Shown here: one piece after another, positions 48,707 to 57,807 of the stretch | Layout of the letters: the number at the start of each line of letters is the position of its first letter | Position numbering within the stretch: position 1 is the stretch's first letter | NCBI GenBank assembly: GCA_041662645.1 | Contig: JBAZSA010000001.1 | Span: 1 to 58,795, forward strand | Origin: Desulfurivibrionaceae bacterium | Lineage (GTDB): Bacteria; Desulfobacterota; Desulfobulbia; Desulfobulbales; Desulfurivibrionaceae | Reading direction: 5' to 3' | Length of the DNA: 58,795 nucleotides | Notes under the pieces: generated by a model | The model's database searches: none | What the model saw: the letters and a program-made list of their open reading frames with translations, nothing else | What the model was told of the DNA's origin: nothing | Program-made: the position numbers and the translations under genes

Positions 48707-49024
48707 TTAAAACGTTTTCAGGATATACTCGGCGATCGCCTTGGCGTCACTGTCAGGCAGGATGTTGGCATCGAACTTCGACATGGCCGGCCCAGGATTG
48801 CGCATCTTGCCGATGATCGCCTCCACGGTGTTGACCTTATTGGCCTCCCGAGTTGCCTTGTGCAGAGATTTTTGAGGGTTGATGATGTTGCCGCCGTTTG
48901 CATGGCAGGCACTGCAACGTTGCTTAAAGAGCTCTTCCCCGTTGGCCGCCTGTGCGGTATTCGCCGTTGGTATCCACAGGCAAGCGGCTGACAGGGCAAG
49001 TGCAAGGGTAACAACTTTCTTCAT
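48707..49024 (-). CDS. Periplasmic monoheme cytochrome c (c6/c553-like)
   Basis: Signal peptide, CSACHANGGN, distal GPAM. Confidence 0.88.
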   Translation of the reverse strand: MKKVVTLALALSAACLWIPTANTAQAANGEELFKQRCSACHANGGNIINPQKSLHKATREANKVNTVEAIIGKMRNPGPAMSKFDANILPDSDAKAIAEYILKTF

Positions 49025-49050
49025 GTTCAGAAGCCTCATCTGTTAAAGGT

Positions 49051-49395
49051 TTATTTCTCGCCGGTCCCGTATTGTGCGGCAAGATAGCTGCTGATGGTCT
49101 TGGCGTCTTCTTCGTTGATCGGCGCGCCAAACACCTTGATCATCTTATGGACTTCGTTATCCCAAGTTTTCGCCGATAGGCGGGGCTGCATGGGAATGTA
49201 GTCGGGGCTGTGGCAGATGGCACAGAAGATCATCACCTTGTCTTTGCCTGCTCCCTCTTTCAGTTCGGGCGGAATTGTCGGCAGGGTGATCGAGTGCACA
49301 GACCCCGTTCCCTCGGCCTGCGCCAGCGGGACATGATGCTGAACAAGGAACACGGTCGCCGATATTAGCATGACGAATACGATGATTTTTTTCAT
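49051..49395 (-). CDS. sorB: SorB-like monoheme cytochrome c
   Basis: Signal peptide, CAICHSPDYI..QP..W..EVHKMIKVFGAPI; follows the sorA-like gene. Confidence 0.75.
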   Translation of the reverse strand: MKKIIVFVMLISATVFLVQHHVPLAQAEGTGSVHSITLPTIPPELKEGAGKDKVMIFCAICHSPDYIPMQPRLSAKTWDNEVHKMIKVFGAPINEEDAKTISSYLAAQYGTGEK

Positions 49396-49403
49396 GTTCC
49401 CTC

Positions 49404-50594
49404 CTATCCGACGGTGACGTCGACTTTTTCGATATTATTCCGCATGTAGCCGGCCGGGTTCCACAGACTGTCAAGAGGCTGCGACTCGCCGATGCTGTTG
49501 GTCGCGCGCGCCATCAGGGTATATTTTCCTTTCTGCGAGGGCCTCCAGGGCAGCGACCACAGAACCCAGGAATACTTGCCGAGATCCTTGCCCAATTTGG
49601 CCTCCTTCCAGGTCTTGCCGCCATCCACCGAAACAACGACGTCCTTGATGCCGTAGCCGCCGGAAAAGGCGAGGCCGGATATGGTCACCTCCTTGCCCAT
49701 TGGCAAACGGTTGCCCTGGGAGGGCTCGATGATAAGCGAGCGGGTATCCATCCGGTTGATGGGAACGGTCTTGCCAGGGTTGGTGCCGGGTGGAACGCAG
49801 GCACAGGGATTGGCCGGAATGCGGTAGGCCGGATTCATCCAGAAAGTTTCCAGCGGTTTCGACAGCACGGTCACATCGCTGAGCGCCTTTACCCAGTATG
49901 AGGCATACCAGCCCGGCACCACCAATCGGGCGGGGAAGCCGTTGAGCATGGTCAGCGGCTTGCCGTTCATCTCGTAGGCGATGATGATATCTTCCTCCAG
50001 AGCCTTATCCACTGGCAGCGCCTTGACCAGGTCAGGTACGGTGGGAAGCGGCCCGGAATCAAGGCCATTAAAGGACACCTCCACCGAATCGCCTTTGACT
50101 CCGGCCTTGGCCAGGATGTCCTTCAAGCGGGCGCCGCCCCAGGTGACGTTGCCCATGGCGCCGTTGCCCCACTGCCCGCCGGGAACACGCGGCTCAAAAA
50201 GGCTGCGGCCATTGCCGGCGCATTGGATGACCGCGGTATAGCTAACCTTGGGAAGTCCTTTCAGGTCGTCCATGGAAAGCTCAAACGACCGCTCGGTATT
50301 GCCGCCGACCTTGATCCGCCAGGTCTGCAGATCAACCGAGGTGGGAATGTTGGCGATATGCCAGCGGACAAAGAGCGCTTCGTTGGGCGTGATCAGCTCC
50401 TTGAAAAAATGTTTGGGCGTTTCCAGCTGCGGTGGCCGTGAGGTGAGGAGGATCAAGTCCGTCTTTTCCGGGAAACGAACCAATTTCCCCTCACTGGCAA
50501 AAAGATCGACAGGGATCCCCCCCAAAGCGGTCACCATACCGATGGAACTTGCTGTCTTTAGGAAATCCCGACGTGAAAAAGATCTACTTTTCAT
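49404..50594 (-). CDS. sorA: Tat-exported sulfite oxidase-family molybdoenzyme, SorA-type sulfite dehydrogenase
   Basis: SRRDFLK Tat signal; RPPQLETP, FVRWH, IQCAGN (Mo-ligating Cys), PGWYASYWVK, WNPAGY. Confidence 0.82.
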   Translation of the reverse strand: MKSRSFSRRDFLKTASSIGMVTALGGIPVDLFASEGKLVRFPEKTDLILLTSRPPQLETPKHFFKELITPNEALFVRWHIANIPTSVDLQTWRIKVGGNTERSFELSMDDLKGLPKVSYTAVIQCAGNGRSLFEPRVPGGQWGNGAMGNVTWGGARLKDILAKAGVKGDSVEVSFNGLDSGPLPTVPDLVKALPVDKALEEDIIIAYEMNGKPLTMLNGFPARLVVPGWYASYWVKALSDVTVLSKPLETFWMNPAYRIPANPCACVPPGTNPGKTVPINRMDTRSLIIEPSQGNRLPMGKEVTISGLAFSGGYGIKDVVVSVDGGKTWKEAKLGKDLGKYSWVLWSLPWRPSQKGKYTLMARATNSIGESQPLDSLWNPAGYMRNNIEKVDVTVG

Positions 50595-50925: not shown

Positions 50926-51777
50926 ATGAAAAATCACAGATTGGCATTTGTTTTGGTCACCACTGTCGCCATCGCCATTGTCGGCGCCGGCCTGTCCCTC
51001 TTTTTTGGCAGGTTCATCAATCTTGCCGGTATGGGGGGCGAGACAATGCCGATGTCGCTTCCGCCGGCCGCCCAGCAAGAGACGGCAGCGGCAATCACCT
51101 ACGCCCCTCCCTCTCCGCAGGATGCCCCGGCATCCATCAAGGAAGCTGTGCTGCTCGGCGCCAACATCCTCGCGGAAACCGGTAAGTATGCCGCCCCATA
51201 TGTGGGCAACAAGCTTTCTTGCACCAATTGCCACTTCAAGGCAGGCATCACCCAGGGGGGCAAAAACGGCGGTCTGTCCTTGGTCGGGGTGGGAGCTTCC
51301 TATCCCCAATACCGTAAAAGGCAAGACTATGCCGTTGATCTGGTAACCCGGACCAACGACTGCTTCAAAAGAAGCATGAACGGCAAGCCATTGCCTGAAG
51401 AAAGCAAGGAGATGGCCGCCATTGTCACCTACTACCAGTGGATATCAAAGGGATTGCCGGTCTACGCGGAAATACCTTGGTTGGGCCTGCCGCATCTCAA
51501 GAGTCCCCATGCCCCGGACAAGGCCAAGGGCGGGCAGGTTTTTGACGTCCAATGCGGTGTCTGCCACGGGAAGAACGGCGAAGGCACCAACGCCGCTCCT
51601 CCTCTCTGGGGCGATACCTCCTTCAACGACGGGGCAGGCATGCATAAGCCGGCAAACCTTGCCTCCTTTGCCCACCTCAACATGCCGTTGGGCAACCCGG
51701 ATCTTTCCGTTGAGGATGCCCTGGATGTGGCGGAGTATGTTGCCGCCCAGCCGCGACCCCATTTCAGCAATAAGTAA
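50926..51777 (+). CDS. tsdA: Diheme cytochrome c, TsdA family (thiosulfate dehydrogenase/tetrathionate reductase)
   Basis: CTNCH and CGVCH; RTNDCFKRSMNG (active-site Cys), PPLWG..SFNDGAGM, NMP, PRP. Confidence 0.85.
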   Translation: MKNHRLAFVLVTTVAIAIVGAGLSLFFGRFINLAGMGGETMPMSLPPAAQQETAAAITYAPPSPQDAPASIKEAVLLGANILAETGKYAAPYVGNKLSCTNCHFKAGITQGGKNGGLSLVGVGASYPQYRKRQDYAVDLVTRTNDCFKRSMNGKPLPEESKEMAAIVTYYQWISKGLPVYAEIPWLGLPHLKSPHAPDKAKGGQVFDVQCGVCHGKNGEGTNAAPPLWGDTSFNDGAGMHKPANLASFAHLNMPLGNPDLSVEDALDVAEYVAAQPRPHFSNK

Positions 51778-51795
51778 TCGTCAGGAGCGTAGCGC

Positions 51796-53163
51796 ATGGA
51801 GTTCCCAATTTTTCAGGTACCCTATCTGGGTAACGGCATGACCATTGCGCTTGATGCCGTGCTGCATGTCATTATCAGCCACGGTCTGGCCATCGGCGCG
51901 GTTTCCATGGTGGTGGTCAGCGAATATCTCGGACAGCGCCGGGCATCCCATGAATGGGAATGCTTTGCCAAGGATTTTCTCCGGGTTATCGTTTTTTTGA
52001 CCACCAGCGTCGGCGCTATAACCGGAGTCGGCATCTGGCTCATCACCAGCGCTCTGGCGCCGCGCGGGATCGGCTCGCTGCTCCGGGTTTTTTTCTGGCC
52101 CTGGTTTATGGAGTGGGGTGTTTTCACCGCCGAGGTGGTCATCGTCCTTATTTATTACTACACCTGGCAAAGCTGGACCGGGGAGAGGAAAAAACACCAC
52201 CTGCGGCTCGGCCTCGGCTATGTTGCGGCGGCCCTCTGCTCGGCTCTGTTGATCACCGGCATTCTCGGCTTCATGCTCACCCCGGACGGCTGGCCGTGGA
52301 ACAAGAGCCTCTGGTCGGCATTCTTCAATGCCAGCTACTTGCCGCAACTTGTCCTGCGCCTCGGCATCGCCTATTCCCTGGGCACCCTCTTTTCCGTCGG
52401 CTACCTTGTCTTTACCCGCCGGGAAGGTAATTTTCGCAAAGAGGGTCTTGCGGTTTTCGCTAAAATCGCCCTTATCAGCCTAACGGTCACGCTTTTCAGC
52501 GCTGCCTGGTATTTCAAGGCGGTCCCCTCCGCCTTCAAGACCCATTCGCTCTATGCGGTCATGACCTCCCGCTTTTCCCAGCAGCCCGGACTGTTTTGGG
52601 AAATCACCATCGGCGGCGCGGTTTTTCTGCTGCTTTTCTGGCTTGTGGCCCTGCGTAGGTCAGTCATCTCCGTCCGGATCCTTGTGGTGCCGGCGATTGT
52701 TGTCGCCATTCTTTTCGTGGCCCAGTTTGAACGGGTGCGGGAGTTTATCCGCGGCCCGTATCTGATGCCCGGCTATATGTATGCCAACCAGGTTCTGCTT
52801 GCGGAGGCACCTCTTTTTGCCAAGAAAGGTATGCTCCCGAGCTCTTACTGGTATAAGGCCACAGCCAAGCAGGGCGATCCGGTGGGCCAGGGCGCCTATC
52901 TTTTTGCCCAAAACTGTTCCGCCTGCCACACCATCGGCGGGATCAACGATATCGTTGTCCGGGTGCAAGGCAGAACAGCGGACGGCCTCTACGTCATCCT
53001 CGGCCACACCCAGGAAATGGTGCCATTCATGCCCCCTTTTTCAGGCACCAATCAGGAACGGCGGATCATGGCCGATTTTCTCTTTCGCCTCGGAGACGGC
53101 ACGATCAAACTTGGCGCGCCCTCTCGCTTTACCCCGCTCAACGGAGGGTCGGCACATGAATAA
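51796..53163 (+). CDS. Cytochrome bd subunit I (CydA)-like membrane protein with C-terminal cytochrome c domain
   Basis: About 9 TM; HVIISH, EWGVFTAE, GFMLTP, ERVREFIRGPY (EXGRQPW-like); CSACH...MPPF. Confidence 0.75.
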   Translation: MEFPIFQVPYLGNGMTIALDAVLHVIISHGLAIGAVSMVVVSEYLGQRRASHEWECFAKDFLRVIVFLTTSVGAITGVGIWLITSALAPRGIGSLLRVFFWPWFMEWGVFTAEVVIVLIYYYTWQSWTGERKKHHLRLGLGYVAAALCSALLITGILGFMLTPDGWPWNKSLWSAFFNASYLPQLVLRLGIAYSLGTLFSVGYLVFTRREGNFRKEGLAVFAKIALISLTVTLFSAAWYFKAVPSAFKTHSLYAVMTSRFSQQPGLFWEITIGGAVFLLLFWLVALRRSVISVRILVVPAIVVAILFVAQFERVREFIRGPYLMPGYMYANQVLLAEAPLFAKKGMLPSSYWYKATAKQGDPVGQGAYLFAQNCSACHTIGGINDIVVRVQGRTADGLYVILGHTQEMVPFMPPFSGTNQERRIMADFLFRLGDGTIKLGAPSRFTPLNGGSAHE

Positions 53164-54721
53164 CCTCTTTGACCTCCTTCTGCAAAAGCCCATGCCCGAG
53201 CCATGGTTGCAGGGCCTTCTTTTTGTCTCCTTTGCCCTGCACCTGCTCTTTGTCCTGTTCACGCTCGGCACGGCGATCCTTGCTTTTTCCTACCTGTTGA
53301 GCGGCCACTGGGGCGGCAAGCCTCAATCCCTTCGCCTGGCAGGCCGGATTGCCAAAGCCTTCATGGGCCACAAAAGCCTTGCCGTGGTGTTGGGCGTGGC
53401 CCCCTTGCTCCTGATCCAGGTTGCCTTTACCATTCCATTTTTTACCGGGATCAATCTCTTTGCCCCTTACTGGCTTGTCATCATCGCGCTGCTCATCGTC
53501 GCCTTTCTTGCTTTCGATGTGCTGGCCCATCACCTTGACAGCCACCGCCTTATCCCGCTGATCTTGGGAATTACCGGCCTGCTCACCCTGTTGGCGGTCC
53601 CGGGAATCTTCGTTCTGATCCTGACCGCCTCCGAACATCCTGCCCGTTGGATCACCATCATTGAGCAAGGGTACCGCCTGAACGGATTGTTGGCTGTTCA
53701 CTGGTTGTTTAGATATCTGCATGTCCTGGGGGCTGCGGTGGTGTTCGGGGCGGCGTTTCATTATTTTTTCGCCGCTGAGGAGAGGGAGGAGCGAAAATCC
53801 CTGCTGCGTCTTCTCGTCGCTTCCACCTTGCTCCAGATTGTCCTCGGCATCCTGCTCTATGCATCACTGCCGGACAAGCCGGGGATGATTGTCAATCTCG
53901 CCTTCTTTATCGGGGTAGGCGTTGTTGCGCTTTTTCTTTGGTACCTGTTCATCATCGGCAGCAAAGAGGATACGCTCCTTTCATTACAACTTACCGCTCC
54001 CGCGATGATGTGTATCCTGGTCTCGATGTTGCTGGGCCGTCAGCTGATTCAGAACCGGACATATCTGCCCCTCACGGTAGCGCTGCAGGAAAATACCCGG
54101 GCGCACAGCCGGGAAACCGGCGCTTTCACCCAGGAAAGCCTTGCGCGGTATCAGGCAAAGCTCAACGTTGTCTACGACAACGGCGCCACCATCTATGCCC
54201 AGAGCTGCGCCTTCTGTCATGGCGAGCTGGCGGACGGCGCGGGACCAGAGGCGAAAAATATGGCGGTGCGGCCGGAAAACATTGCTGCCGTGCGGACTAC
54301 CGCACCCTATCTCCATAAAATTCTTACCGAGGGGGTTCCCGGCTCGGCCATGCCGTACTTCACCTTCCTGGATCGGAACAAGCTTGATGCCCTGGCCGAA
54401 TATCTCAACGCCAACCACCATCTGATAGAAAAACCAGGGGCTCTTCCGGCTGTCATTTCTGCGGCAACGCTGAAGCAGGCCGAGCAGGTCTATGTGGAAA
54501 CCTGCACCCCGTGTCATGGCAATGACGGCAAGGGCACGGAACAATCCCGTGGCTACCGTCCGCCACCGCCTGATTTTACAGCGTATAGCCTCACACCCCA
54601 ATGGATGTTCGAGGTGATCAGTAACGGCTACAACGGCACCTTAATGCCTGGTTTCGGAAACCTGCCCGAAACGGTCCGGTGGGGGCTGGTAGAAGTCGTC
54701 ACAGCCAAACGTGGTCGGTAA
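53156..54721 (+). CDS. Polytopic membrane protein (CydA'-like) with two C-terminal cytochrome c domains
   Basis: TM histidines (FALHLL, RYLHVL); CAFCH...AMP and CTPCH...LMP; overlaps the upstream gene by 8 nt, GGAGG RBS. Confidence 0.75.
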   Translation: MNNLFDLLLQKPMPEPWLQGLLFVSFALHLLFVLFTLGTAILAFSYLLSGHWGGKPQSLRLAGRIAKAFMGHKSLAVVLGVAPLLLIQVAFTIPFFTGINLFAPYWLVIIALLIVAFLAFDVLAHHLDSHRLIPLILGITGLLTLLAVPGIFVLILTASEHPARWITIIEQGYRLNGLLAVHWLFRYLHVLGAAVVFGAAFHYFFAAEEREERKSLLRLLVASTLLQIVLGILLYASLPDKPGMIVNLAFFIGVGVVALFLWYLFIIGSKEDTLLSLQLTAPAMMCILVSMLLGRQLIQNRTYLPLTVALQENTRAHSRETGAFTQESLARYQAKLNVVYDNGATIYAQSCAFCHGELADGAGPEAKNMAVRPENIAAVRTTAPYLHKILTEGVPGSAMPYFTFLDRNKLDALAEYLNANHHLIEKPGALPAVISAATLKQAEQVYVETCTPCHGNDGKGTEQSRGYRPPPPDFTAYSLTPQWMFEVISNGYNGTLMPGFGNLPETVRWGLVEVVTAKRGR

Positions 54722-54781: not shown

Positions 54782-55639
54782 TCAACGGTTTTTGTTACTG
54801 CGCATCTTGCGGAAATGCTGTAGGCCTGCGGCCGCCAGATAAACAAATCCTGCGATCACGATGATGGCCGGGCCGCTGGGCAGATCGAAGCTGTAGCTGA
54901 TGGCCAGGCCCGAGCCGATAAAGGCGATGCAGAACAGGGTGGCCAGCACCATCATCTGCCAGAGGCCCTTGGCAAGATTGCTCGCCACTGCCGCGGGCAG
55001 GGTCAGCAGGGCAATGACCATCACAATCCCCACCACCCGGACCAGCAGGACCACGGTCAAGGCAGTCAGGCAGAGGAGCAGCAGGTAGTACAGATCCGTG
55101 CGGACCCCGCGCAGCCTGGCATACTCCTCGTCAAAACAGACGGCCAGGAATTTATGGTAAAACAGGGTGGCTATTCCCACCACCAATGCGTCCAGCACCA
55201 GCACCATCCAGAGGTCAAACTCCGAGATCAGCAGGATATTGCCGAACAGGTAGCTCATCGGCTCGACATAGCCCGGGGTTTTGGCGATGAACAGCAAGCC
55301 GACGGCCATCCCGATGGCCCAGAGGGCGCCGATGGCCGTGTCTTCCCGCTGGTTGGCGTGCAGGCTCACCATGCCGATGATGATGGCTGCTAAAAGCGCT
55401 GCAACGATGGCTCCTGACAGGGGCCCGAACCAGGTGATGCCCAACTTGTGCTGGCAGTAAAGCCCCGCCCCGATGCCGCCGAGCACACAATGGGCGATGG
55501 CGCCGGCAATATAGGTGATGCGGCGGGCCACCACATAGGTGCCGATGATGCCGAAGGAGAGGCTGGCCAGGATACCGGCACCGAAGGCATAGCGCAGGAA
55601 GGGAATGGCCGGGTCGGCCAGGGCGTCAAGAAATTCCAT
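54782..55639 (-). CDS. znuB: Zn/Mn ABC transporter permease
   Basis: AIAHCVLGG, YLFGNIL, FDEEYA..G, VGIVMV..LLTLPA, PSGP. Confidence 0.85.
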   Translation of the reverse strand: MEFLDALADPAIPFLRYAFGAGILASLSFGIIGTYVVARRITYIAGAIAHCVLGGIGAGLYCQHKLGITWFGPLSGAIVAALLAAIIIGMVSLHANQREDTAIGALWAIGMAVGLLFIAKTPGYVEPMSYLFGNILLISEFDLWMVLVLDALVVGIATLFYHKFLAVCFDEEYARLRGVRTDLYYLLLLCLTALTVVLLVRVVGIVMVIALLTLPAAVASNLAKGLWQMMVLATLFCIAFIGSGLAISYSFDLPSGPAIIVIAGFVYLAAAGLQHFRKMRSNKNR

Positions 55640-56420
55640 GGTTGCAGTGTCCCTCGGGCGAGCAGCGGTGATCGTGGCGGATCATGCGGATGTCGCCGCC
55701 GTACATGTTGCGGATCAGCTCACCGGTCAGTTCGCTGGTGGGGTGGAGCACGACCTGGCGGTTGACGCAGACGATGCTTTTGAAGAACTTCGAGGCAAAA
55801 CCGACATCGTGGGTGACCAGCATGACGGTGAGGCGTTCGTTGAGCTTGCCGAGCAGCTTGAAGAGCTGCTCTTCCGAGGCGGCGTCGATGTTGGCCGTCG
55901 GCTCGTCAAGGAGAAGCAGTTCGCCTTCCGCGGCCAGCGCCCTGGCAATGAGGACCCGCTGCCTTTGTCCCCCGGAAATCTCTGCAAACAGGCGGCCGGC
56001 CAGATCAGCCAGCCCCATTTCCGCAAGGGCCGCCTGGGCAGCCTCCCGGTCGGCCTTGGCGTAAGCTCCGCAGAAGATCCGGTCCAGCCGGCCCATGAGC
56101 ACGACATCAAGCACCGTCACTGGAAACTGCGGATCGTAGCGTGCATACTGCGGCACATAGCCGATGCGCAACCGGCTTTTCTCCGGCGTTTGCCCCAATA
56201 CTTCGATCTCGCCCCGGTTCGGTTTGAGCAACCCGAGGATGAGCTTGAGCAGGGTAGTCTTGCCGCCGCCGTTTGGCCCCACGATGCAGAGAGAATCACG
56301 GGCCATGATATCCAGGGTGACGTTTTCCAGGATGGGTGCGCCATTGTAAGCGAAATCAAGATCCCGGATGCGGAGGGCTATGTTCTGTTTGCTGGTGGCG
56401 GACATGGGCTGTTCCTTCAC
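55626..56420 (-). CDS. znuC: Zn/Mn ABC transporter ATPase
   Basis: GPNGGGKTT, GYVPQ, ISGGQRQR, LDEPT, THD; His/Cys-rich tail HDHRC..HCNH. Confidence 0.88.
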   Translation of the reverse strand: MKEQPMSATSKQNIALRIRDLDFAYNGAPILENVTLDIMARDSLCIVGPNGGGKTTLLKLILGLLKPNRGEIEVLGQTPEKSRLRIGYVPQYARYDPQFPVTVLDVVLMGRLDRIFCGAYAKADREAAQAALAEMGLADLAGRLFAEISGGQRQRVLIARALAAEGELLLLDEPTANIDAASEEQLFKLLGKLNERLTVMLVTHDVGFASKFFKSIVCVNRQVVLHPTSELTGELIRNMYGGDIRMIRHDHRCSPEGHCNHGIS

Positions 56421-57322
56421 TATTTCAGTGACTGTCCGATGGCTGCGGCGATGGCGGCGAGATTGCGCAGCACCTCCTGGTCCAGTGGATCGATGGGCAC
56501 TACGGTTCCGTTGATGGCCTGGGCCACGGTGGCCCCGCTCTTGCTGTCGAATTGCGGTTGGACAAAGATGGTGCGCACCCGATCCTCCCTGGCTTGGCGG
56601 ATAAGGGCGCTAATCTGTTTCGGCGTAGGGGATTTGCCGCCGATTTCCACCCCTTTCTGTTTCAGGCCGTAGGCTTGGGCAAAATAGCCGAAGGCCGGGT
56701 GAAAAACGTAAAAGGTTTTGCCCCGGTACGGAGCAAGGGTGGTGGTCAACCGTTTGTCCAGTTCGTTGATCTCGCGCTGGAGGGACGCAAGATTTCTGTG
56801 CAGAGCCTCTTTGTGCTCCGGCATGGCGACACTCATGGCCGCCGCCATGTTGTCGGCCATGAGCCGCAGGTTGTCCGTGGCCAGCCAGAGATGGGGGTCT
56901 GCTTCGTTGCCGGAGTGCGCTTCCTTGGCATGTGTTTCGTGGTGGTCTTCCGCAAGGGGTAAACGGACGATACCCCGGGTGGAATCCACGATCCGCAGAT
57001 TGCGATTGTTGGCCGCGACCTTGGCAACCAGTTGTTTTTCAAAGGGGATGTCCACCGTGAAAAACAGACTGGCTCCGGCCAGGGCGGCTGCCTGCCGAGG
57101 GGTTGGTTCAAAGGTGTGCGGATCTTGCCCTTTGCCGACCAGGGTGTGCACCTCTACTGCATCGCCGCCGATTCTTTCGGCAAGATATGCCTGGGGCGGC
57201 ACGGTGACAAAGATCCGTGTCTTCGTCGTTGTTGGCGCGGCGAGGGCGCTGGGTGCCCATCCGGTGATGGCCAGGAAAAGAGCAGCGATTGCAAAGAATC
57301 TGGAAAGGTTCAATGCTGGCAT
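56420..57322 (-). CDS. znuA: Zn ABC transporter substrate-binding protein
   Basis: Signal peptide, DPHTFEP, His-rich loop [25 protein letters not shown]; start may be 57364. Confidence 0.85.
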
Positions 57323-57585
57323 GGATTTTCCGTGATCCCGCAGACGAGATGCACGGCCTTGCACTCATCACATTTTTGCAGGGAATGGGTGTCGAGAAAT
57401 TTTGCCCAGTGGGTGCGCTGTTCCGAGGTCAGAATGCCGGTTCCCTGGCAGAGCGGGCAACCGTTTTCCAGGGCGTTCAAGATGGCGTTTCTGATAAATT
57501 CGGATTTGTTGGGCACCGTATGCAGGGCTTTGGCCAGTGTTTCATCGGCCTTGAAGGTGATGGTTTCCAGTTTTTTATTGCGCAT
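57310..57585 (-). CDS. Ribbon-helix-helix (CopG-like) regulator with Cys/His-rich C-terminal domain
   Basis: ETITFKAD beta ribbon, [10 protein letters not shown] helix; [19 protein letters not shown]; GGAG RBS. Confidence 0.78.
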
Positions 57586-57619
57586 GTTTTTTCTCCGGAT
57601 GCGTAAATGCGAGAGCCTA

Positions 57620-57648
57620 ATCGTAATACAAAGTATTACTTGTGTAAA
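57620..57648 (-). promoter_or_regulatory. Sigma70 promoter with internal palindromic operator
   Basis: Minus strand TTTACA (57648-57643)-17 nt-TACGAT (57625-57620); perfect palindrome GTAATAC-aaa-GTATTAC at 57623-57639. Confidence 0.7.
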
Positions 57649-57807
57649 CGGGAATATCAATACCGCCATCCCTGGTTGGGTGAGGTCTCTGTAATGAAAA
57701 GGGGGGTTGCTTCTTCTTTTTCTTATGGTATACTTAAGCCAATGCTTTTTTTTCTTGTATTGCTTGGCGATCCCACCATAAACGCTGTCTGCTGAAAGGG
57801 GTTTCTC

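Follow-up and report, generated by a model that had tools for sequence, protein, structure and literature searches.

Two enzyme families are central to the system described here. The OR-C1a/OR-C1b pair of the cytochrome bd superfamily is characterized, in the OR-C passages of Murali, Gennis and Hemp, by eight helices, heme c motifs and no quinol site, with cytochrome c as the proposed donor (bioRxiv 10.1101/2021.01.16.426971). The diheme enzyme TsdA interconverts thiosulfate and tetrathionate in both directions (PMC6879331, PMC5146829), and TsdB reportedly passes electrons to heme-copper oxidases (PMC9774590). We analyzed a stretch of 58,795 nucleotides (hereafter, the window) from contig JBAZSA010000001.1 of a Desulfurivibrionaceae bacterium (GCA_041662645.1), in which a tsdA gene is followed by genes for a membrane pair that matches OR-C1a/OR-C1b by sequence and predicted fold. 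We propose, with a probability of roughly 0.55, that this trio would act as a periplasm-facing thiosulfate:O2 oxidoreductase, passing electrons from thiosulfate through TsdA and c hemes to O2. The proposal draws on an intact O2 site, the linkage to tsdA, the occurrence of TsdAs beside O2 or H2O2 reducers, and sulfur-oxidizing neighbors. Coordinates are those of the window, and the three-gene cassette lies on the + strand:

50926..51777, + strand: tsdA, 283 residues; homolog of diheme thiosulfate dehydrogenase/tetrathionate reductase, with CxxCH at 99 and 210, Cys146 and Asn252-Met253
50944..51018, + strand: N-terminal hydrophobic helix of TsdA (residues 7-31), likely an uncleaved membrane anchor
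51796..53163, + strand: OR-C1a-type subunit a, 455 residues; eight long membrane helices and a C-terminal heme c site (CxxCH 374/Met412)
53156..54721, + strand: OR-C1b-type subunit b, 521 residues, ATG at 53156; predicted CydA fold, eight helices and two C-terminal heme c domains

The original prediction had described three genes with a short spacer, an overlapping second membrane subunit and one and two heme c sites on the membrane proteins, and the open reading frames bear this out. Specifically, tsdA and subunit a are separated by 18 nucleotides (51778-51795), and the start of subunit b overlaps subunit a by 8. As also predicted, the locus holds no open reading frame of the cydB or tsdB kind; an ordinary cydAB lies elsewhere in the host genome, on contig C100. 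The claim that no such system had been described holds for the trio but not for the membrane pair, which corresponds to the OR-C1a/OR-C1b already described in those passages. Each part comes from a named family, and the combination was not found in the literature: no paper linking TsdA to OR-C appeared in a search of mostly titles and abstract openings (the supplement of Murali et al. and subscription papers were outside its reach), and the OR-C passages of that study do not state such a link.

Like the OR-C1a/OR-C1b of those passages, the pair consists of adjacent eight-helix CydA paralogues with heme c motifs and no quinol site, with proton-channel glutamates in subunit a only and an equivalent of His19 in both. 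In contrast to that description, the gene for a precedes the gene for b, b carries two hemes c, and an apparently anchored TsdA is dedicated to the pair. With CydAB (qOR1-3) it shares the fold and, in subunit a, the heme d/b595 ligands and the proton-channel residues; it differs in lacking the quinol loop motif, the b558 His in a, a ninth helix and CydB, and in having periplasmic heme c domains instead. The TsdA shares with the Allochromatium vinosum and Campylobacter jejuni enzymes, and with TsdBA (5lo9), the diheme fold, a His/Cys catalytic heme and a His/Met second heme, and its Asn before the heme 2 Met is as in C. jejuni. It differs from these TsdAs by its conserved N-terminal membrane helix and the bd-like pair alongside; no soluble or fused diheme TsdB adjoins tsdA, and the locus lacks a HiPIP gene. 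TsdB may have its functional substitute in the diheme domain of b. A CydA-cytochrome c fusion of cable bacteria, also Desulfobulbales, likewise combines a CydA homolog with a periplasmic cytochrome c (10.64898/2026.01.20.700514); the likeness is taken from its description, and the available portion of that source mentions no TsdA.

The original prediction had called the first membrane protein, subunit a, CydA-like, and both profile and fold support this. Pfam made no CydA call on a or b as single proteins, and PF01654 was matched by 6 of the 103 homologs of a. A profile built from 103 sequences (subunit a plus 102 further listed hits) found the CydA of G. thermodenitrificans (5doq_A, E 8.5e-19). 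The AlphaFold model (predicted local distance difference test score, pLDDT, 80.8) best matched CydA chains (Z 28.0, root-mean-square deviation 2.9, 305 aligned residues); all eight of its long helices fall within residues 10-319, and the heme c domain is C-terminal. Counts of positively charged residues were consistent with the positive-inside rule for most loops of subunit a and weakly so for subunit b. A natural a-b fusion protein among the relatives (P0364) supports the predicted heterodimer of a and b.

The residues expected for O2 reduction are intact in subunit a. His24, Glu106, Glu113, Glu316 and Arg319 are identical in 103 of 103 aligned close homologs; Glu106 and Glu113 have six residues between them, and Tyr120 and Tyr121 are kept in 102 and 97 of the 103. 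Among distant relatives (114 full-length sequences of 150 listed, out of 1119 hits) the residues of the O2 site and the proton channel persist in 106-114 of 116 alignment rows. The E316-F-I-R-G-P-Y stretch corresponds to ExxRxPW in the host genome's own CydA, and E316 and R319 are presumably equivalent to E445 and R448 of E. coli. The b558 His position is Leu187. QPxKxAxxE, which we take to be the qOR quinol-loop motif (K252/E257) and which is present in the host's own CydA, occurs neither in a nor in b, nor in any of the 114 full-length relatives of a. For His24, Glu106 and Glu113, the E. coli equivalents are H19, E99 and E107 (bioRxiv 10.1101/2021.01.16.426971).

Subunit b is a CydA paralogue itself, a point absent from the original prediction: its AlphaFold model (pLDDT 90.2) also best matches CydA chains (Z 26.0, root-mean-square deviation 3.3, 297 aligned residues for 7ose_A). 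This kinship is visible by fold only: CydA is not among the best 60 of 77 Protein Data Bank sequence matches, and sequence comparison with the host's own CydA gave a probability of 0.4%. Its heme c sites (CxxCH 351/Met399 and 450/Met497) follow a long helix. In a profile alignment of a and b (probability 89%), no Glu of b lies opposite E106 or E113. His29 is identical in 111 of 111 aligned sequences; together with Arg186 and His189 it occurs in 37 of 37 loci examined, and Met291 and Arg295 occur in the 35 that cover them. All five are also present in the paralogue from a second OR-C pair of the host genome, in which a heme-c-free b precedes an 8-heme a (C146:550-4271, L084). A bis-His heme on the cytoplasmic side (His72/His202, near-invariant in close homologs) was considered as a required feature and rejected, because these residues are replaced in 8 and 3 of the 37 loci and both are replaced in the C146 paralogue. 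A complex prediction with residues 1-440 of a, 278-521 of b and 1-281 of TsdA as partner scored 0.17 against a mark of 0.32, with no controls folded, and counts neither for nor against the complex.

R186-Y-L-H189 of b mirrors the K-x-x-H ([KR]xxH) of CydA helix 5, and this likeness gives a foothold to a menaquinol:tetrathionate oxidoreductase, in which a low-spin heme b of subunit b (His189/Met291) would oxidize menaquinol and the c hemes would carry electrons to TsdA for tetrathionate reduction. The His/Met pair resembles that of b558, so the quinone link of the original prediction keeps a basis in subunit b. Against it, the loop between helices 6 and 7 of b is seven residues long and has no quinol motif, and a would have no use for its intact O2 site and its proton channel.

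The TsdA of the trio could be aligned with the A. vinosum enzyme (best match 4wqc, E 6e-42) and carries the marks of its family, namely two CxxCH motifs, a Cys distal ligand of heme 1 and a Met ligand of heme 2. The active-site Cys and the Asn-Met reported in the original prediction were recovered in this alignment, in which Cys146 is the catalytic heme 1 ligand and Met253 the heme 2 ligand; both are invariant across all 105 sequences aligned (the query plus 104 homologs out of 120 listed). Judging by these residues and by sulfur-enzyme neighbors, the protein would interconvert thiosulfate and tetrathionate. The original prediction also took the Asn as a sign of tetrathionate reduction; we reject the Asn as such a marker. 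In C. jejuni TsdA, N254G is reported to shift activity towards reduction and N254K not to make the enzyme oxidative (PMC5146829); Asn-Met is also present in seven peroxidase-TsdA fusions of the order, and the residue before the heme 2 Met varies among 41 linked TsdAs (N in 31, F in 7, Y in 3).

The N-terminal helix of TsdA is likely an uncleaved membrane anchor and part of the complex, as the original prediction had suspected. Its conserved positions (Gly20 96%, Phe27 91%, Phe30 93%) are followed by a linker in which conservation averages 0.37. By eye, a similar helix is internal in a cytochrome b-c-TsdA fusion (L043), and two fusions without a TsdA domain (L013 and L040) retain an anchor-like helix at the C-terminus.

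To gauge the linkage across genomes, we scanned GTDB species genomes and obtained 50 loci, some of them near-duplicates, of which 48 had upstream sequence. In 41 of these 48, tsdA lies directly upstream of a on the same strand, 0-62 nucleotides apart, and subunit b follows a in 47 of the 50, the remaining three stopping at a contig edge. This linkage is far beyond chance, and the conservation on which the original prediction depended thus holds. Record titles place the loci in Thermodesulfobacteriota, Nitrospirota, Bacteroidota, Ignavibacteriota, Chloroflexota and Planctomycetota, plus one Methanoperedens contig; Desulfobulbaceae and Desulfocapsa are among those whose subunit a is 81-82% identical. 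The contig filed as Ca. Methanoperedens (L020) carries the trio and a SoxB-like gene, with flanks not shown to be archaeal. It is possibly mis-binned, given that the trio occurs in 1 of 49 genomes of that genus, and OR-C is known only in Bacteria according to the OR-C passages of Murali et al. (bioRxiv 10.1101/2021.01.16.426971). Within the genus of the host, some OR-C match was found in 22 of 24 other genomes, whereas a pair of the window type (at least 87% identity) occurs in only 4 of 25, this one included. Most genomes of the genus have a distant match to a pair of the C146 kind. In a quick tree of 40 of the 50 loci and 24 of 150 listed representatives, with near-duplicates and fragments left out, the window clade is separate from the 8-heme type of C146 (Shimodaira-Hasegawa-like approximate likelihood ratio test support 100). 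Sequence and fold comparison establish what the parts are, which ligand residues they carry and that their linkage is conserved.

Linkage could reflect co-expression only, with TsdA feeding soluble cytochromes rather than serving as a subunit, and the OR-C1 pair acting as a general periplasmic cytochrome c oxidase. We judge this very improbable. It would accommodate the 7 of 48 loci in which tsdA is missing upstream, 4 of which have no recognized donor module, and the window also encodes a soluble c6-like cytochrome close by. However, the TsdA helix is conserved at specific positions and was apparently kept when the catalytic domain was lost, and pairwise identities of TsdA and subunit a track one another (Spearman 0.68 over 30 loci, with kin not independent).

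As a reverse control, we ran a TsdA profile over 201 genomes of the order, which returned 20 matches in 19 genomes. The whole host genome holds a single TsdA/SoxA-domain match. Seven of the 20 TsdAs are of the anchor type, and all seven precede OR-C1a (the window included, several being loci already counted above). The other 13 comprise 8 fused to a diheme peroxidase domain, 1 with it in the adjacent gene and 4 with neither within 1.5 kb. Hence, 16 of the 20 sit with a predicted reducer of O2 (7 OR-C1a) or H2O2 (9 peroxidases). In one fusion, the two domains match cytochrome c551 peroxidase (E 2e-73) and TsdA (E 3e-40). Such fusions are candidate thiosulfate:H2O2 oxidoreductases, of which no description was found in a literature search of mostly titles and abstract openings. 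The fusions L070-L073, L075, L076, L078 and L079 are tetraheme, L078 in reverse domain order; further tetraheme fusions were seen at L021:4563-6524, L048:9579-11510 and L049:9618-11528.

These peroxidases raise the question of whether thiosulfate might be oxidized with an acceptor at the bd-like site other than O2, such as NO, H2O2 or another oxidant. Going by record titles, most hosts are anaerobes, and no assay of an OR-C enzyme was found in the literature. This alternative is nonetheless quite improbable: the conserved residues are those assigned to O2 reduction in the OR-C passages of Murali et al., and the invariant residues of subunit a give no hint of a non-heme iron or copper site.

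Tetrathionate-consuming or sulfur-oxidizing genes neighbor the trio in 18 of 50 loci (TetH in 9, SoxB-like in 11, SorA in 4). TetH lies downstream of the trio in its 9 loci (E 1e-168 to 6l8a), and the residue altered in the D325N structure 7cqy is Asp here. TetH (L008:4636-6177 and 8 further loci) is close to the acidophile tetrathionate hydrolase, with the catalytic Asp in the 7 read; a 460-residue MauG/peroxidase-like protein adjoins it at L024:5685-7067 and in 4 other loci. The SoxB-like gene scores 357 bits, under its cut-off. It was seen at L017:8942-10390 and in 10 other loci, often near DsrE-family proteins of two types and molybdate/sulfate-type binding proteins; the L017 copy begins at the catalytic domain and has no evident signal peptide. 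Oxidative routes described for the S4-intermediate pathway use TetH or SoxB to consume tetrathionate, with TsdA and SoxB paired in Erythrobacter flavus 21-3 (PMC7608252) and TetH paired with TsdA or TQO (PMC10859504). The loci share the TetH and SoxB-like genes with that pathway, yet their hosts belong to largely anaerobic lineages, the proposed sink is a bd-like pair, and the present genome has no TetH match.

The loci without tsdA also bear on direction. Three of the seven (L013, L014 and L040) have a cytochrome b-(c)n fusion upstream in its place, with a Rieske gene visible in L013 and L040:

Cytochrome b-(c)n fusion loci, Planctomycetota: L043:1182-5984; L013:2334-5972; L040:113-3751; L014:1-2462

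Such a fusion in place of tsdA implies that the OR-C1 pair is an electron sink fed from outside, and a separate quinol-oxidizing module would be redundant if the pair itself oxidized quinol. The Planctomycetota arrangement of Rieske gene and cytochrome b-(c)n fusion ahead of OR-C1a/b resembles a bc-oxidase supercomplex. L043 keeps its fused TsdA and has a second TsdA copy without the heme 2 motif, and the L040 fusion is split across two frames.

Menaquinone has a potential of about -74 mV. The thiosulfate/tetrathionate couple is given as +198 mV (PMC6879331), so thiosulfate cannot readily reduce menaquinone; on this value and commonly used potentials for the rest, transfer from thiosulfate to O2 and from menaquinol to tetrathionate are both downhill. 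Thermodynamics therefore permits the menaquinol:tetrathionate oxidoreductase, as do the bidirectionality of TsdA, a host that is an anaerobe bearing dsrAB, and the quinol-to-periplasm transfer proposed for the cable-bacterial homolog (10.64898/2026.01.20.700514). We still consider it unlikely, since TetH and SoxB neighbors would compete for its acceptor, a cytochrome b quinol module is already encoded in some loci, and Asn-Met is no marker of reduction. The headline of the original prediction, a quinone link and tetrathionate respiration, is weakened by the missing quinol motif, the intact O2 site in a and neighbors that fit thiosulfate oxidation, while its other option, a wire to a bd-like O2 site, gains support. 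A bidirectional hub, oxidizing thiosulfate (perhaps also quinol) when O2 is present and passing quinol electrons to tetrathionate when it is absent, would use both the conserved O2 site of a and the possible low-spin heme b of b. TsdA works both ways, and the cable-bacterial study, in its available portion, leaves dual function open for its homolog. We regard such a hub as improbable, as it requires a quinone site and no motif for one was found.

Several points weigh against a thiosulfate:O2 oxidoreductase. The host genome gave no match to TetH and, for the SoxB family, just a distant one (24%); every TetH locus belongs to Bacteroidota or Ignavibacteriota and some are near-identical, so they do not count as independent evidence. 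The host already has cydAB and the second OR-C pair. No biochemistry of an OR-C enzyme was found in the literature, and O2 reduction by subunit a is deduced from residues, in the OR-C passages of Murali et al. as here. Subunit b may bind a b558-like heme able to exchange electrons with quinone, and the joining of TsdA to a Rieske/cytochrome b unit in L043 would allow flow from quinol to tetrathionate. The direction of the cable-bacterial CydA-cytochrome c, as an O2 reductase or as a conduit from quinol to the periplasm, is itself treated as unresolved in a 2026 preprint (10.64898/2026.01.20.700514).

If the trio is a thiosulfate:O2 oxidoreductase, TsdA would condense two thiosulfate to tetrathionate (+198 mV) and pass electrons from its heme 2 to the two c hemes of b, which would stand in for TsdB. 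These would reduce the heme c of a, then a b595-like heme (Glu316) and finally the O2 heme (His24). Protons would enter from the cytoplasm via Glu106 and Glu113, separating about one charge per electron without quinone. Heme content, binding, transfer order and acceptor are our inference. The cbb3 oxidases (CcoNOP) offer a functional analogy, with a monoheme cytochrome c beside the catalytic subunit and a stalked diheme cytochrome c as the entry point; the heme c layout is similar, but the catalytic fold is unrelated. TetH or SoxB-like enzymes, where encoded, would clear the tetrathionate, or it would be lost chemically. In anaerobes, the role would be O2 scavenging under sulfidic conditions with some energy gain.

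A second set of genes, absent from the original prediction, runs divergently from tsdA (48707-50594):

49404..50594, - strand: sorA-like Tat-exported molybdo sulfite dehydrogenase (NF052245, E 4e-155, 516 bits, cut-off 600); accessory
49051..49395, - strand: sorB-like monoheme cytochrome c (NF052246, E 1.7e-24, just under the cut-off); accessory
48707..49039, - strand: c6-like soluble monoheme cytochrome c, a possible shuttle; accessory

Electrons from sulfite would enter the same sink by way of SorAB and the small cytochrome, with sorA as a probable second donor. On the other side lie genes for a zinc-type ABC transporter and for a small, Cys-rich protein resembling ribbon-helix-helix proteins (54782-57669); they converge on the trio from the opposite strand and are apparently unrelated. 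In a nine-sequence alignment of the region upstream, conservation is confined to the ribosome-binding region, and a promoter scan found 4 candidates against 2.4 expected. Two runs filed as RNA (one study, 90-99% identity over the region) were not used as evidence of expression, because they look like DNA: intergenic DNA and flanks are covered too, with contigs up to 27 kb. The host genome (2.47 Mb, 77% complete) has a dsrA match over its cut-off and NapA-, ArrA- and PhsA-like molybdoenzymes, all under theirs; at that completeness, it shows no match to a heme-copper oxidase or diheme peroxidase. A small Rieske-like protein and cytochrome b pair (C33:7216-8500, L085) is a possible route from quinol to the periplasm.

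A broader view, which we hold only tentatively and at somewhat less than even odds, is that the trio is a quinone-independent, membrane-bound thiosulfate oxidase of three subunits, with anchored TsdA integral to a c-fed bd-type O2 reductase, and that lateral transfer has carried it among sulfate reducers, Nitrospirota, Bacteroidota and Chloroflexota. Together with the peroxidase-TsdA fusions, it would belong to a wider strategy of anaerobes that use thiosulfate as an electron source for periplasmic removal of O2 and H2O2. The bd superfamily comprises three families, of which OR-C is one; the trio, if our reading is true, would give OR-C its first electron donor. A clade carrying its own donor enzyme makes OR-C function directly testable with thiosulfate and an oxygen electrode. 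Known bd oxidases are reported to resist sulfide (PMC9774590), which would suit sulfidic habitats. If true, the proposal would place an O2-linked route from thiosulfate to tetrathionate, with proteins that usually carry no annotation beyond "cytochrome c", in lineages regarded as anaerobes.

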